This document shows positions 148-5,171 of a stretch of DNA of 5,171 nt, piece by piece. The stretch is taken from the IMG/VR virus record IMGVR_UViG_2602041644_000005; one strand, 5' to 3'. The position numbers were made by a program, and so were the translations under genes. This DNA is from a virus. Its lineage: Duplodnaviria; Heunggongvirae; Uroviricota; Caudoviricetes. Under the pieces are notes generated by a model. The model saw nothing but the letters and a program-made list of their open reading frames with translations. It made no database searches and was not told the origin of the DNA. Every line of letters starts with the position of its first letter. Within the stretch, counting starts at the first letter, position 1.

Positions 148-486
148 CTATTTCCCTGAATTTACGACGAAACTGTTCGAGCGGGCTGAAGCACTCATGC
201 TCATAGCCTTCGCGGAGGTAGATAACACGTTGTGTTTCCGGTTCCCAACGAATGACTCTGACGGGCACTCCGTAGTGATCTTTGAACCAGCGGTTAACTT
301 GTCGCAAAGGACTGTCTCCTTCTGCCGGTTGAAATCACCCACAGCCCACTCAGCAAAGCTGTGGGTTACAATTTCCCTGTCACCTGGTACATTCACTGCA
401 TAGCAATATTCCACCTTCGCTTTTCCACCCGGTACAGGAAGCGCAATCAGTTGCGAGCGACGGTAGTGTGTTGTTAAACTGTTCAT
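148..486 (-). CDS. hypothetical early-operon protein (112 aa)
   Basis: ORF from the six-frame track. Its start ATG (486-484) overlaps the upstream gene's stop as ATGA (483-486). GGAG lies about 9 nt upstream on the minus strand. Its TAG stop (150-148) sits inside the SD of the next gene starting at 138. This translational coupling supports the minus ORF over the overlapping plus ORF 131-403. No recognisable motif. Confidence 0.6.
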
Positions 487-1040
487 GCGTTAGTTTCTCC
501 ACAACCAGAAGCAATCGACGCCACGACGCCCGGAGCTGCACACTCGCGGGCGTCATTACTTTCTGAAACACAAAAGATTTTGTAGACCAGTGCTGCATGC
601 TCCTGCAGCTTCGAAATTGAGAGGTACAGCTCGTCGTTAATTGCTGTCTTCTCATGCGGTTCCACTACACCGTCTTCGATTGCTGAACGAATCTGTTTTG
701 AATAACTGCCGATCTGTTCAATGACTTCCAGCAGACGCTGGTTAATATCGGCGTTGTCCACATCCTCGACGTCAGGAAGAGACACAAATACGCCATTTGC
801 AGACTGCGCCACAGCATCAGCAATGAAGTGAGTGCCACCAGCACGCTGTAAAACCATTGCCCATCCCAGCGGGAAAATCTGATCGCCATCGGCACGAAGG
901 CGGTTAAATAATGCGTTCTCTGTTACGTCCAGCCAGTCAGCAGCTTCAGCGTAACCCCCCGGCAACGCTGCGATAGTTTTTCTGACAGCTTTCACGTACC
1001 ACTCAGGCTGTTTTTCTATTTTCCAGTGATGCTTACCCAC
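483..1040 (-). CDS. phage early regulatory protein, possibly CII/YdaT-like (about 185 aa from a GTG start; maximal ORF extends to 1151)
   Basis: The maximal ORF 483-1151 (222 aa) would overlap the cro-like gene by 83 nt. An in-frame GTG at 1040-1038 is preceded on the minus strand by AGGAG (plus 1047-1051) with a 6-nt spacer and lies 28 nt after the cro-like stop (1069-1071), so it is the preferred start. Alternative ATG starts at 1118 and 1115 lack an SD. Family call rests on gene order (cro then cII/YdaT-like then replication) and weak recollection. Confidence 0.6.
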
Positions 1041-1068
1041 GGTTAACTCCTCGTTTCTGTGGTTACGT

Positions 1069-1332
1069 TTACGCAGCTGAACCGCTAACTTTTGAATAGC
1101 ACTCAGGTAATCCATCATTTGGATTGGGGTAAATATCAGGACGCAGTTCATGAGGGGTCACGGACCAGTTTCCCAACTCACAAAGTTGTAAAACCCGTTC
1201 TGACGGGACTTGATTGTTAATTACCCAATTAGCGACGGATTGAGTGGACTTAAAACCAAAGTGACGGGCTACTTCAGATAAAGATTTTCCCGCAGCTTTT
1301 ACTGCTTTCTCTGTGTAGTTTTGAGATGACAT
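1069..1332 (-). CDS. Cro-like / YdaS-family HTH transcriptional regulator (87 aa)
   Basis: ATG at 1332-1330 with AGGAG 6 nt upstream on the minus strand (plus 1333-1345 reverse complement is agaggagaaaggt). It is divergent from the CI-like gene across an operator-bearing intergenic region. The protein carries an HTH-like segment (LSEVARHFGFKSTQSVANWV) and an ELRPD motif typical of prophage Cro/YdaS-type regulators. Confidence 0.8.
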   Translation of the reverse strand: MSSQNYTEKAVKAAGKSLSEVARHFGFKSTQSVANWVINNQVPSERVLQLCELGNWSVTPHELRPDIYPNPNDGLPECYSKVSGSAA

Positions 1333-2313: not shown

Positions 2314-3390
2314 ATGACAAAATCAATTTGTTTTTTTAATCATAAAGGTGGGGTAAGTAAAACCACAACAACCTTCAATCTTGGATGGGCACTTGCGGAT
2401 GAAGGCAAGAAAGTATTGATGGTTGACCTTGATTCGCAATGTAATCTAACAGGAATGGTTCTTGGCTATGAAAAGATTGATGAGGGTTTAGATTCTTTTT
2501 ATTCTAGCAGAGATAACTTAACTCTTGGACCTATTGTAGAATATTTGATTAATGGCGGACAACCTGAAGCATACCTTGAAAAAGAAACGGGAAAATTACA
2601 CCCTACACTGCATGAAAACCTTCTGCTTCTTCCCGGACATTTAGATGTTTCGGACTTAGATTCACAGATAAGTGTTTCTCTAAAAATTGCTGCTGGTATT
2701 CCTGCTACAAGAAATATACCAGGGAACCTGCCAAAAATATTACAGCTAATCGCCATGAAGAATAATATTGATTACATTCTTTATGATCTCAGCCCTAATG
2801 TTGGAGGTTTAAATGAAGTAGTTCTCATGTCAAGTGACTATTTTATCGTACCTGTAGCTCCAGACTTTTTTTGCTGGCAAGCAATTCGCTCTCTCTCAAA
2901 AAATATACCTCGCTGGCACAAAGAATTAGCATTATTTAAAGAAAATAATGATGGTAACTCTTCACAATCAATTAAAAATGCACCGCAGTTTCTAGGTATG
3001 ATTCAGCAGAGATACAGGCCGCGTAAAGGAGCACCTGTAAAATCTTTCGAAAAATGGATGGCAGCTATCCGTGATGCTGTTGATTCGATCTTAGTGCCAA
3101 ATCTAGAAAAAATTACCTGCATAATTCCACGAGATAAAGTGCAACATGCAATTAACAAAACAACAGTCAGTGGAGATTTATCAGCCTATGATCTTGCGCA
3201 TATTTCCGATTTCAACTCATTAATCGCAATAAGCCAACAACTAGCGACACCTGTTTTCTCCATCAGTGATCAGCAAATTCGCGATTCAGGGCAATTTGGG
3301 CATGCCTTAAATACAATGAAATCAAGCAGAGACGCCTTTAACGAACAATTTAAAGGGCTGGCTCAACGAGTTCTAGAACTTACAAAGTAA
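2314..3390 (+). CDS. ParA/MinD-family P-loop ATPase (deviant Walker A) with an uncharacterised C-terminal extension, 358 aa; orphan, no ParB partner
   Basis: N-terminus MTKSICFFNHKGGVSKTTTTFNLGWALADEGKKVLMVDLDSQCNLT matches the ParA/Soj/MinD deviant Walker A (KGGxxKT[TS]) and the following hhhhDxD motif. A mid-protein hydrophobic beta-strand plus Asp (YILYDLSPN) resembles ParA Walker B. AAGGA lies 9 nt upstream of the ATG. The gene is clearly more AT-rich than its neighbours (hand counts of 60-nt samples give roughly 28-45% GC against about 50% in the cro-side genes). The final about 150 aa are not recognisable. Confidence 0.85.
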   Translation: MTKSICFFNHKGGVSKTTTTFNLGWALADEGKKVLMVDLDSQCNLTGMVLGYEKIDEGLDSFYSSRDNLTLGPIVEYLINGGQPEAYLEKETGKLHPTLHENLLLLPGHLDVSDLDSQISVSLKIAAGIPATRNIPGNLPKILQLIAMKNNIDYILYDLSPNVGGLNEVVLMSSDYFIVPVAPDFFCWQAIRSLSKNIPRWHKELALFKENNDGNSSQSIKNAPQFLGMIQQRYRPRKGAPVKSFEKWMAAIRDAVDSILVPNLEKITCIIPRDKVQHAINKTTVSGDLSAYDLAHISDFNSLIAISQQLATPVFSISDQQIRDSGQFGHALNTMKSSRDAFNEQFKGLAQRVLELTK

Positions 3391-3575: not shown

Positions 3576-3633
3576 CAACAACAAATATCTACTTTTTGTT
3601 GTTGATTTTTGCTACTTTAAGTAGCAACATAAT
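3576..3633. promoter_or_regulatory. Candidate OL-type operator/promoter: perfect 19-bp dyad TTGCTACTT-T-AAGTAGCAA (3609-3627), an upstream CTACTT half-site (3589-3594), a flanking 10-bp inverted repeat (3576-3585 / 3595-3604) and CATAAT (3628-3633)
   Basis: The dyad core CTACTTTAAGTAG matches the cI-proximal repeats CTACTTAAAATAG at 11 of 13 positions. The two CTACTT half-sites here are 22 bp apart, against 23 bp at the cro/cI site. -35-like TTGCTA and -10-like CATAAT overlap the dyad. Everything is read directly from the sequence; function is inferred. Confidence 0.45.
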
Positions 3634-3736
3634 GTAAGCTATCACGGACAGGCAGGACGCCCACGAAGTAGCCGCCGGTGGCGTATGAATGACCGGATGA
3701 TTCGTTAGCAACAAAAAAGCGCCCTACCGGACGCTT

Positions 3737-3750
3737 CGCTCTTTAAAAAT
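3737..3750 (+). promoter_or_regulatory. boxA-like element CGCTCTTTAAAAAT (possible nut-site component)
   Basis: Near-identical to the boxA consensus (GCTCTTTAACAA in rrn; CGCTCTTAAAAATT in lambda nutL as I recall it). It sits about 110 nt downstream of the OL-like promoter on the plus strand. No convincing boxB hairpin follows, so this is tentative. Confidence 0.3.
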
Positions 3751-3853
3751 CAGTAACCCTCACTTTGGGCCTGGATCTGGTGGCCTGGGACGAGGTGGAA
3801 TATGAAAAGGCTCTATTGGTCGACTCATTATCCAATCCTATTATGTCTCATTT

Positions 3854-3880
3854 CTTCGGTTTCGGTGGTTTCGGCTTCGG
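3854..3880. repeat. Short hexamer repeat block CTTCGG-TTTCGG-TGG-TTTCGG-CTTCGG (mirror-symmetric)
   Basis: Read directly. It lies 23-50 nt beyond the stop of the minus-strand 164-aa gene, in its 3' flank. Confidence 0.5.
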
Positions 3881-3902
3881 AGGCACATGTCCGTGAACTG
3901 GA

Positions 3903-4397
3903 TTATGCTTGTTGGTCATCATTAATATCCGTTAGTTCATTCTCTAGAGGTAGATCTCCCGCACACCAAGCTATAAATTTTTCTTTGGTTGTTAAATCGT
4001 ACTTAGTTGGAACACCAGCAAAAATACAGGCCCGAATGAAAGCCGCTCGTTCAAGTGATTTCCATGGATTACTATCAGTATCTTGGATTTTTAAATACCT
4101 AGCTTGCAACTGATCTTCAGGAAGGGTATCAGACTCAATCAGCAGTCTTTTGTAATGCCTCGCTTGCTCTTTAGACATTCCAGCCTCTTGGCCAAACTGA
4201 TAGACCAACTGAAGAACCGAAAGTACGGCAACAAACAAACCGAAAATAAATAAATTACTGTACGGGGCGAAAACTGAAAAACCGAGAACGATTAACATCA
4301 ACGTTATTAATTTATCAATGCGAGTTAACAACGTGTAATTCATCTTCTCCAATACATAAGAGTAGTGAACATAAAATTTATAATCGTCTCTGGTCAT
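3903..4397 (-). CDS. Small inner-membrane protein (164 aa; two predicted N-terminal TM helices plus charged C-terminal domain); candidate SieB-like superinfection-exclusion or abortive-infection protein
   Basis: A 495-nt ORF in AT-rich DNA, where stop codons are frequent, so unlikely by chance. The hydrophobic hairpin LITLMLIVLGFSVFAPYSNLFIFGLFVAVLSVLQLVY is followed by a K/E/D-rich soluble region. It is oriented opposite to cI and convergent with the ParA-like gene. The start is ATG 4397, or ATG 4343 with GGAG 3 nt upstream. SieB-like is a guess from size, topology and genomic context only. Confidence 0.65.
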   Translation of the reverse strand: MTRDDYKFYVHYSYVLEKMNYTLLTRIDKLITLMLIVLGFSVFAPYSNLFIFGLFVAVLSVLQLVYQFGQEAGMSKEQARHYKRLLIESDTLPEDQLQARYLKIQDTDSNPWKSLERAAFIRACIFAGVPTKYDLTTKEKFIAWCAGDLPLENELTDINDDQQA

Positions 4398-4496
4398 ATT
4401 AGTCTCAGTTTTCCTTGGGTGGTTTTGGAGGAACTGGAGGCTTTTGTCTTAACGGCACATGCCTCTCCTCATACTTATCTACACATAGATCCATAT

Positions 4497-4553
4497 AAAT
4501 CCTTATCGTTGTTGGGGAGGGTTACATAATAACCAAATCCTTGTTGTTGGGGA
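4497..4553. repeat. Direct repeat AAATCCTT(ATC)GTTGTTGGGGA (4497-4518 and 4535-4553) flanking a small inverted repeat GGTTA-cataa-TAACC (4520-4534)
   Basis: Read directly. It lies in the non-coding region upstream (on the minus strand) of the 164-aa gene, near the right edge of the AT-rich segment. Confidence 0.5.
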
Positions 4554-4782
4554 ATAACCAGGTCCACCTCGCCTGATGTGGCTAAAAGCAGGCACATAAC
4601 AGCTAAGTATTTTCAACCAGAGAGAATCCTTAGCGTTGTGGTGAATGCGCAGGCTGATGCGCGAAAGACATTGCAGCTATTGCGGAAAAGAGCTGTTCGG
4701 CGGGGCAATTAAACGCCCGTGAGAGTCTGAAATAACCGCAAGCCGGAGATCAGCACCGGTCACCACAACAGCCACTGCTTTG

Positions 4783-4828
4783 GCGGTACCAGTTTGTACA
4801 CTTGCTTCCGGCTGGTACCGCTCTTTTT
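4783..4828 (+). terminator. Intrinsic terminator or attenuator (10-bp stem GCGGTACCAG / CTGGTACCGC, 19-nt loop, then TCTTTTT)
   Basis: Perfect 10-bp stem 4783-4792 pairs with 4812-4821, followed by a run of five T at 4824-4828. It is plus-oriented (the minus strand has no T-run after the stem). It lies about 140 nt upstream of the ATG at 4966. Confidence 0.55.
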
Positions 4829-4917
4829 ACAAAACAGAGAAGAGCATCACCGGACGACGGGCTCATAACCCAATCCATCCGGGCGGCTGCCACCGCAGGT
4901 GTTCTTCTCTGTTTTGT
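4829..4917 (+). other. Long-range inverted repeat forming a potential 20-bp RNA helix (4829-4848 with 4898-4917) that encloses about 49 nt, immediately upstream of the RBS of the 4966 gene
   Basis: ACAAAACAGAGAAGAGCATC pairs with GGTGTTCTTCTCTGTTTTGT; 17 of 17 core positions pair if one G-U is allowed, and the helix extends to 20 bp with a second wobble. A stem this long is unusual for a simple terminator and has the length RNase III recognises. Confidence 0.4.
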
Positions 4918-4965
4918 GGAGAAACCAACCGACCTTGCAGGGTCGATATGATGAGGAGCAGCAAA

Positions 4966-5171
4966 ATGGCTAGCGAACGCAGTACTGATGTGCAGGCATT
5001 TATCGGGGAGCTGGACGGCGGCGTATTTGAAACCAAAATCGGCGCAGTTCTCAGTGAAGTCGCTTCCGGTGTGATGAACACGAAAACCAAAGGTAAGGTC
5101 TCGCTCAACCTGGAAATCGAACCGTTTGATGAGAACCGTGTGAAAATCAAACACAAACTCTCATATGTTCG
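4966..5171 (+). CDS. 5' end of a hypothetical phage early protein (open to window end)
   Basis: ATG at 4966 with GAGGAG 9 nt upstream; alternative in-frame ATGs at 4948 and 4951. Translation MASERSTDVQAFIGELDGGVFETKIGAVLSEVASGVMNTKTKGKVSLNLEIEPFDENRVKIKHKLSYV has no stops and ordinary enterobacterial composition. No family recognised. Confidence 0.7.
   Translation, partial: MASERSTDVQAFIGELDGGVFETKIGAVLSEVASGVMNTKTKGKVSLNLEIEPFDENRVKIKHKLSYV

Follow-up and report, generated by a model that had tools for sequence, protein, structure and literature searches.

In the immunity region of an Escherichia coli lambdoid prophage lies a real, conserved, AT-rich accessory gene for a small two-helix membrane protein, which belongs to an uncharacterised phage family, probably has a SLATT-like fold and stands without the partner that accompanies known SLATT effectors. 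We read its product as a putative stand-alone membrane effector of abortive infection or superinfection exclusion, expressed in the lysogen, and give this reading a probability of roughly 0.45. The gene is a reasonable defence candidate, and one that would hold no surprise for a specialist. The DNA analysed, referred to here as the window, is a stretch of 5,171 nucleotides from a caudovirus record (IMGVR_UViG_2602041644_000005). It represents the immunity region of a prophage of the e14/CPS-53/SfV/SfIV/mEp460 type, and nine complete E. coli chromosomes contain a 2.6-kb stretch of it without a mismatch (100% identity), inside a prophage integrated beside yecE. The features of the window are the following.

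Left edge of the window: end of a replication gene
483–1151, minus strand: YmfL/CII-like gene
1069–1332, minus strand: Cro-like gene
1439 (equivalent of the RefSeq start) to 2143, plus strand: cI repressor, with HTH and S24 peptidase domains
2314–3390, plus strand: ParA/AAA_31-like ATPase
3585–3640, plus strand: OL operators and putative PL promoter (TGCTACTTTAAGTAGCA at 3610–3626, inverted copy of OR; homology break at 3641)
3716–3737, minus strand: stem-loop and T-run, likely terminator of the cassette gene (terminator scan; centroid fold)
3750–4490, no strand assigned: exchangeable cassette (alignment and BLAST boundaries; genome counts)
3903–4397, minus strand: coding sequence of WP_001513551.1, the 164-residue membrane protein from phrog_6315 (supported by the ORF, its annotation, family membership and purifying selection)
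3903–4193, minus strand: predicted cytoplasmic helical domain, codons 69–164 (AF2 helices 68–88, 94–105, 113–127, 137–145 and 153–163)
4194–4310, minus strand: two-helix transmembrane hairpin, codons 30–68 (TM1 about 30–46, APYSN loop, TM2 about 49–68; hydropathy, charge distribution and AF2)
4490–4650, minus strand: common backbone upstream of the cassette, candidate promoter region (repeats; no room for a promoter in the alternative cassette)
About 4952 onward, plus strand: rdgC, at the start of the early-left operon

The ORF at 3903–4397 opens with an ATG and encodes 164 amino acids, and RefSeq places WP_001513551.1, a 'hypothetical protein', at the same coordinates. The first-pass annotation had taken this ORF for a gene, and several lines of evidence now confirm it. 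The HMM of phrog_6315 matches the protein over nearly all of its length (E = 9e-64; residues 1–150 aligned to profile positions 2–151 of 152), and phrog_23697, which probably consists of gene calls truncated to the C-terminal half, matches residues 74–164 (2e-63); PHROGs annotates both families as 'function unknown'. Conservation from the first methionine is seen in 72 close homologs across Enterobacterales, and a family profile search among 1.84 billion representatives returned at least 222 clusters at 50% identity; the clusters listed are nearly all single-domain proteins of 150–180 residues, and nearly all of them align from residue 1. Furthermore, purifying selection acts on the gene in the minus frame: third codon positions hold 9 of 12 and 8 of 10 nucleotide differences between near-identical copies, and 91 of 180, 100 of 191 and 96 of 193 differences between orthologs at about 60% protein identity. 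The AT-richness that had been proposed as common to this gene and the ParA-like gene was likewise borne out, with GC contents of 37.8% and 37.7%, respectively, against 48.6% (1–1332) and 50.1% (4491–5171) in the backbone. Pfam, NCBIfam and PADLOC scans of the protein gave no match above threshold, and a literature search on two RefSeq accessions retrieved no paper. The reading frame of the Enterobacter homolog P0002 is 22 residues longer, and because the minus-strand sequence past the stop in the window (3750–3902) still encodes a peptide resembling this C-terminal extension (…SRTCSSEAETTETK…), the position of the stop differs between lineages.

An overlapping plus-strand ORF of 103 amino acids (3802–4113) had been named at the outset as a competitor, in which case the minus-strand ORF would be a frame open by chance. 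This ORF matches no PHROG, and Pfam only below threshold, whereas hundreds of full-length homologs exist for the minus-strand protein and the substitution pattern tracks the minus frame. These last two observations rule out the plus-strand ORF as the real gene, and we regard a chance origin of the minus-strand frame as almost certainly wrong.

The position of the gene follows from the operators around it. The palindromic operator TGCTACTTAAAATAGCA occurs in two copies between cro and cI, within OR (1359–1404), and an inverted copy of this whole region lies at 3585–3630, between the ParA-like gene and the 164-codon gene. In prophages with three other repressor types, the DNA held in common with the window starts at 3641–3648, a break that is the classical immunity-region boundary at the start of the PL transcript. 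On the basis of the inverted OR copy and of the heteroimmune sharing from 3641, PL is expected to fire rightward from about 3640; the promoter hexamers at 3585–3640 are weak, and we infer PL from this arrangement. Together these data support a location of the gene within the PL transcription unit, on the opposite strand and convergent with both cI and the ParA-like gene, in keeping with the initial proposal that it belongs to the immunity region, runs against the early transcript and faces the ParA-like gene.

The gene is carried by an exchangeable cassette, which we find, with the gene, in 51 of 5,426 E. coli genomes. Strain PF9285 is identical to the window through the ParA-like gene, OL/PL and the stem-loop at 3716–3737; identity breaks at about 3750 and resumes at about 4488, and between these two points PF9285-type prophages hold an unrelated minus-strand gene for a protein of 171 amino acids. 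This alternative product, WP_000559922.1 (locus L003, 6632–7147, minus strand, equivalent to window 3750–4490), has an N-terminal coiled coil and a C-terminal CxxC...CxxC motif, with no significant match to a Pfam family. Its ORF leaves 24 nt free at the left boundary of the slot and at most 5 nt at the right, where it starts, and so fills the slot almost completely; its promoter and terminator must therefore lie in the common backbone, and the same backbone promoter and terminator would then serve the 164-codon gene as well. On the downstream side, the segment at 3716–3737 folds in the centroid structure into a 9-bp stem of −14.2 kcal/mol, and its sequence is backbone DNA common to loci L003–L006, which are prophages with different cassettes.

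On the upstream side, a promoter reading into the cassette is probably located within 4490–4650. The backbone between the cassette and the early-left genes contains repeats of the form AAATCCTT(A/G)T(C/T)GTTG(TTGGGGA) that begin at 4497, 4535 and 4624, in a stretch that matches DNA in about 2,400 E. coli genomes. These are three direct repeats (4497–4511, 4535–4549 and 4624–4638), the first two with GTTGTTGGGGA extensions, and the AAATCCTT repeats could be regulator-binding or nut-like elements. A scan of the window against Rfam at E ≤ 1 returned no RNA family. Upstream of the gene there is no consensus sigma-70 promoter and none matching 9 of 12 positions; the best candidate, TATTAT at 4531–4526, is not conserved in the alternative-cassette prophage. 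The gene is probably transcribed in the lysogen from a promoter in the conserved upstream DNA, with its transcript ended at the hairpin at 3737–3716.

Hydropathy places two hydrophobic segments in the protein, at about residues 30–46 and 49–68, which are separated by an uncharged loop of about five residues, APYSN. Because lysine and arginine residues flank this hairpin on both sides, the protein is assigned an N-in/C-in topology. The tight transmembrane hairpin and the charged cytoplasmic domain described in the first-pass annotation are retained, the C-terminal 96 residues containing 12 K/R and 17 D/E; the hairpin does not lie at the very N terminus, being preceded by a charged helix of 29 residues. 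The AF2 model is confident when built on a diverse alignment (pLDDT 94.2, pTM 0.86; pLDDT 75 in a first, weaker model). In it, helices 3–41 and 49–88 form a long hairpin, and the membrane-distal halves of this hairpin pack against three to four further helices. In the family alignment, the tail of the protein beyond about residue 150 is variable, and R26, D28, Q63, Y66 and the run S75-K76-E77-Q78 are among the conserved positions.

When this model was compared with BFVD using Foldseek, the top matches were almost all giant-virus proteins, about ten of which are named as SLATT-domain proteins (probability 0.99–1.00, E 0.015–0.05, TM score on the query 0.45–0.66). Foldseek E-values never fell below 0.01, and the same families topped the search with the weaker first model. 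In the PDB we found nothing comparable and no solved SLATT-like structure. At the sequence level, the protein itself has no match to SLATT or DUF4231 profiles at E ≤ 10, and hence none above a curated threshold. A few relatives match NCBIfam or Pfam SLATT_4 (0.04–0.06), SLATT_5 (0.066) or DUF4231 (0.071), all sub-threshold at about 13 bits against cut-offs of 55–60. Sub-threshold matches to NCBIfam TIGR04402 occur in 21 of the 28 close members (best E 6e-4), and a few members match SLATT_4 or SLATT_5. Among the 75 distant members, Pfam SLATT_4 matches two below threshold, the PADLOC model of the CBASS '2TM Effector' (PDLC00712) matches eight weakly (best 7.6e-5), and the PADLOC 'RTasSLATT' models of DRT systems match five. 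The CBASS 2TM matches that were resolved individually lie at 0.02–0.03, over TM2 and the next helix, and the resolved weak alignments as a whole cover TM2 and the following helix in a consistent register. All of these weak family signals point to SLATT/2TM effectors, which is suggestive; they are far below the curated cut-offs and fall largely on hydrophobic helices, over which similarity is often spurious.

SLATT names are attached to three UniRef entries of the family, and we suspect these to be automatic name predictions; a third homolog search retrieved no protein with a precomputed SLATT Pfam domain. In an excerpt of the supplement to PMC9122126, SLATT_5 loci appear on draft contigs only. 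The same work reports that HHpred weakly links P4 gop to SLATT_4; a relationship of the present family to gop was rejected at an hhalign probability of 0.5%. On these data we consider a SLATT-like fold likely and the protein a candidate for formal SLATT membership. SLATT proteins and the 164-residue protein would both consist of a two-helix membrane hairpin set into a cytoplasmic domain that is all-helical and about 150–190 residues in size, and both are found on mobile elements. SLATT proteins are described as predicted pore-forming effectors that work downstream of CBASS cyclases, of RADAR and of several defence reverse transcriptases, as in DRT systems (PMC9226505; bioRxiv 10.64898/2026.04.29.721553), and the transmembrane effectors encoded in hotspots of prophages and satellites are generally believed to bring about the death of the infected cell (PMC9122126).

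The topology and the fold also bear on how such a protein might exclude a phage. It could act as an entry block in the manner of P22 SieA, T4 Imm or HK97 gp15, that is, as an inner-membrane bar to incoming DNA that involves no killing. The protein is small, prophage-encoded, located in the inner membrane and carried in a slot that is expected to be expressed in the lysogen, and it needs no partner gene, as is also the case for the known injection blockers. However, its periplasmic loop amounts to about five uncharged residues, its conserved mass is cytoplasmic and would leave little surface for an injection apparatus arriving from outside, and its nearest folds are SLATT proteins of the effector type. 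Because almost nothing is exposed to the periplasm, we consider entry blocking less likely than an effector role, and quite unlikely overall.

The comparison made at the outset was with SieB, on the grounds of size, topology and position. Pfam PF14163, which detects lambda SieB at 1e-29, matches neither the protein nor any of its 28 close (E ≤ 10) and 75 distant (E ≤ 1) relatives; BLASTP against lambda SieB is null, and hhalign of the family against it gives a probability of 0.15%. Homology to SieB is therefore rejected at the level of both sequence and profile. What stands is the arrangement. In lambda, cI, rex, OL/PL and N are followed by sieB on the opposite strand (34482–35036, plus strand, amid the leftward genes of the PL operon), and the gene in the window has the same placement. 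SieB, in lambda and in P22, and the protein studied here are thus both products of prophage accessory genes that lie downstream of PL and run against the early-left operon, and both are small, with hydrophobic helices close to the N terminus and a C-terminal part in the cytoplasm. Ranade and Poteete are said to have described abortive exclusion as the mode of action of SieB in 1993. The internal start of P22 esc has no conserved counterpart; an Esc-like start at Met74, where phrog_23697 begins, was discarded because Met74 is not conserved in the alignment. On the basis of the models, the SLATT class of 2TM effectors offers the better structural analogy than SieB.

A second comparison is with RexB of lambda, which is expressed in the lysogen and has been proposed to depolarise the membrane. 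Both are membrane proteins encoded in an immunity region, and both would be made in the lysogen. RexB differs in having four transmembrane helices, in its need for RexA and in its co-transcription with cI, whereas the protein in the window has two such helices and is solitary. Furthermore, the position of rex is here taken by the unrelated ParA-like gene, and the 164-codon gene lies beyond OL/PL, on the other strand.

The first-pass annotation had left open whether the gene and the ParA-like gene are independent morons or parts of one defence locus. In the window the two genes are adjacent, convergent and both AT-rich, and in the supplement to PMC9122126 pairs of a ParA/AAA_31 ATPase and a hypothetical protein are among the candidate defence cassettes of P4 hotspots, so a single two-gene defence system could be envisaged. 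The genome counts contradict this: of the 5,426 complete E. coli genomes, 109 carry the ParA-like gene and 51 the cassette, and only 9 have the two side by side. An identical ParA (WP_000167381.1) precedes the unrelated 171-residue gene, in the same slot, in many genomes, and in the other cassette-bearing genomes that we examined the gene follows directly after cI of three other immunity types, with no ParA; moreover, OL/PL sits between the two. The gene and the ParA-like gene are independent, as the first of the two alternatives had it, and we hold a two-gene system to be highly improbable.

The ParA-like ATPase (WP_000167381.1) merits a description of its own. It is encoded directly downstream of cI, which is the position of lambda rexAB, and shows at least 99% identity across 109 E. 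coli genomes. Its match to partition ATPases is confined to the N-terminal P-loop and lies far below equivalog cut-offs, and it has a weak PADLOC match to PDC-M28B. It may be a separate accessory or defence gene expressed in the lysogen.

Homologs of the 164-codon gene were examined in more than 15 contexts, and none had a recurrent defence partner: no SMODS/CD-NTase, cyclase, SLOG, reverse transcriptase, RADAR or other recurrent partner was adjacent. Characterised SLATT effectors act downstream of a sensor, whereas this family has neither a nucleotide-signal nor a reverse-transcriptase partner in any context; for the protein in the window, there is neither a match to PDLC00712 nor an adjacent cyclase of the kind that accompanies CBASS 2TM effectors. 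In the prophage and phage contexts (E. coli prophages of three immunity types, Enterobacter, a 26%-identity relative, Fels-2, a P2-like Yersinia phage, a lambdoid Providencia phage and EKP1), the gene is solitary and points against the phage operon around it. In the Enterobacter prophages, and for the 26%-identity relative, it stands alone and reversed within the early operon, which runs leftward, of a lambdoid prophage. The PL operon of Providencia phage PSTNGR2lys likewise contains it in reverse orientation, and in phage EKP1 it lies, again reversed, between the antiterminator and the holin. In the two P2-like phages, Fels-2 and Yersinia phage vB_YenM_42.18, the homolog is antisense within the early operon.

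Some of these homologs are overlooked in current annotation. Those of Fels-2 (locus L001, 4001–4462, plus strand) and vB_YenM_42.18 (locus L008, 3501–3947, plus strand), each about 35% identical to the protein in the window, are unannotated and are overlain by opposite-strand gene calls (STM2733.1 and STM2735 in Fels-2, vBYenM4218_008 in the Yersinia phage), which look like mis-annotation. A small same-strand ORF of 38 or 48 amino acids lies immediately upstream of the homolog in PSTNGR2lys (L009, 3375–3491) and EKP1 (L010, 3347–3493), and no equivalent conserved small ORF is evident in the window. In plasmids, tblastn retrieved family members only, each of them labelled 'hypothetical' or lacking annotation.

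A distant branch of the family, at about 27% identity, is fixed in Salmonella enterica beside sopE2, pphA-like and DUF1398 genes (loci L011, L012 and L017–L019, 5001–5477), with 1,564 member sequences in one cluster, and lies outside any intact prophage, in a region that we take to be a prophage remnant. Fixation of such a homolog, in more than 1,500 member sequences, is in line with a non-defence membrane role, be it in lysogenic conversion, as a modulator of induction or lysis, or as a toxin-like addiction element; alternatively, antisense transcription might damp a leaky PL, and the arrangement itself entails convergent transcription against PL. No function is assigned to the protein in any database searched, which is also in line with such a role. 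However, the slot also takes an unrelated gene, a typical trait of variable defence or accessory cassettes rather than of core regulation, and the strong conservation at the protein level argues that the protein matters, and not just the act of transcription. We consider a non-defence role unlikely.

We return to the reading that we prefer, a self-contained effector, which fits the sieB-like placement, the AT-rich cassette, the exchange with an unrelated gene and a conserved surface that is almost entirely cytoplasmic. The gene product would be a solitary inner-membrane protein with both termini in the cytoplasm, a minimal periplasmic loop and, after the hairpin, about 95 residues that form a helical domain in the cytoplasm. 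This domain would sense a cue from the infecting phage, whereupon the hairpin would oligomerise and permeabilise or depolarise the inner membrane, so that the infection is aborted. Functionally, such a protein would be analogous to SieB, RexB and the SLATT effectors, with sensing and killing combined in one small protein. Against the effector reading we counted that the protein has no SLATT, CBASS or PADLOC match, no adjacent sensor and no consensus sigma-70 promoter, and that the copy beside sopE2 in Salmonella, outside an intact prophage, is also compatible with a non-defence role. A more far-reaching version, in which one SLATT-like protein of 164 residues, acting with no partner enzyme, would detect infection and also make the membrane lesion as a functional replacement of SieB, and in which e14/CPS-53/SfV-like prophages would swap single-ORF defence cassettes in a slot antisense to PL whose promoter and terminator are supplied by the backbone on either side, seems to us unlikely as a whole.

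On the practical side, the homologs in Fels-2 and vB_YenM_42.18 can now be recognised as genes that are unannotated or called on the wrong strand, and a related gene as one that is fixed beside sopE2. Should the gene confer no phenotype, it would be one more prophage accessory gene with no assigned function. If it does exclude phages, it would represent a minimal, partner-less SLATT-like effector and would bear on what activates SLATT proteins and how they act, questions that the DRT10 preprint leaves unresolved. It would also mark the interval between the PL leader and the early-left genes as an easily recognised small hotspot for the exchange of single-gene defence cassettes, in prophages of a family that is very common in E. 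coli.
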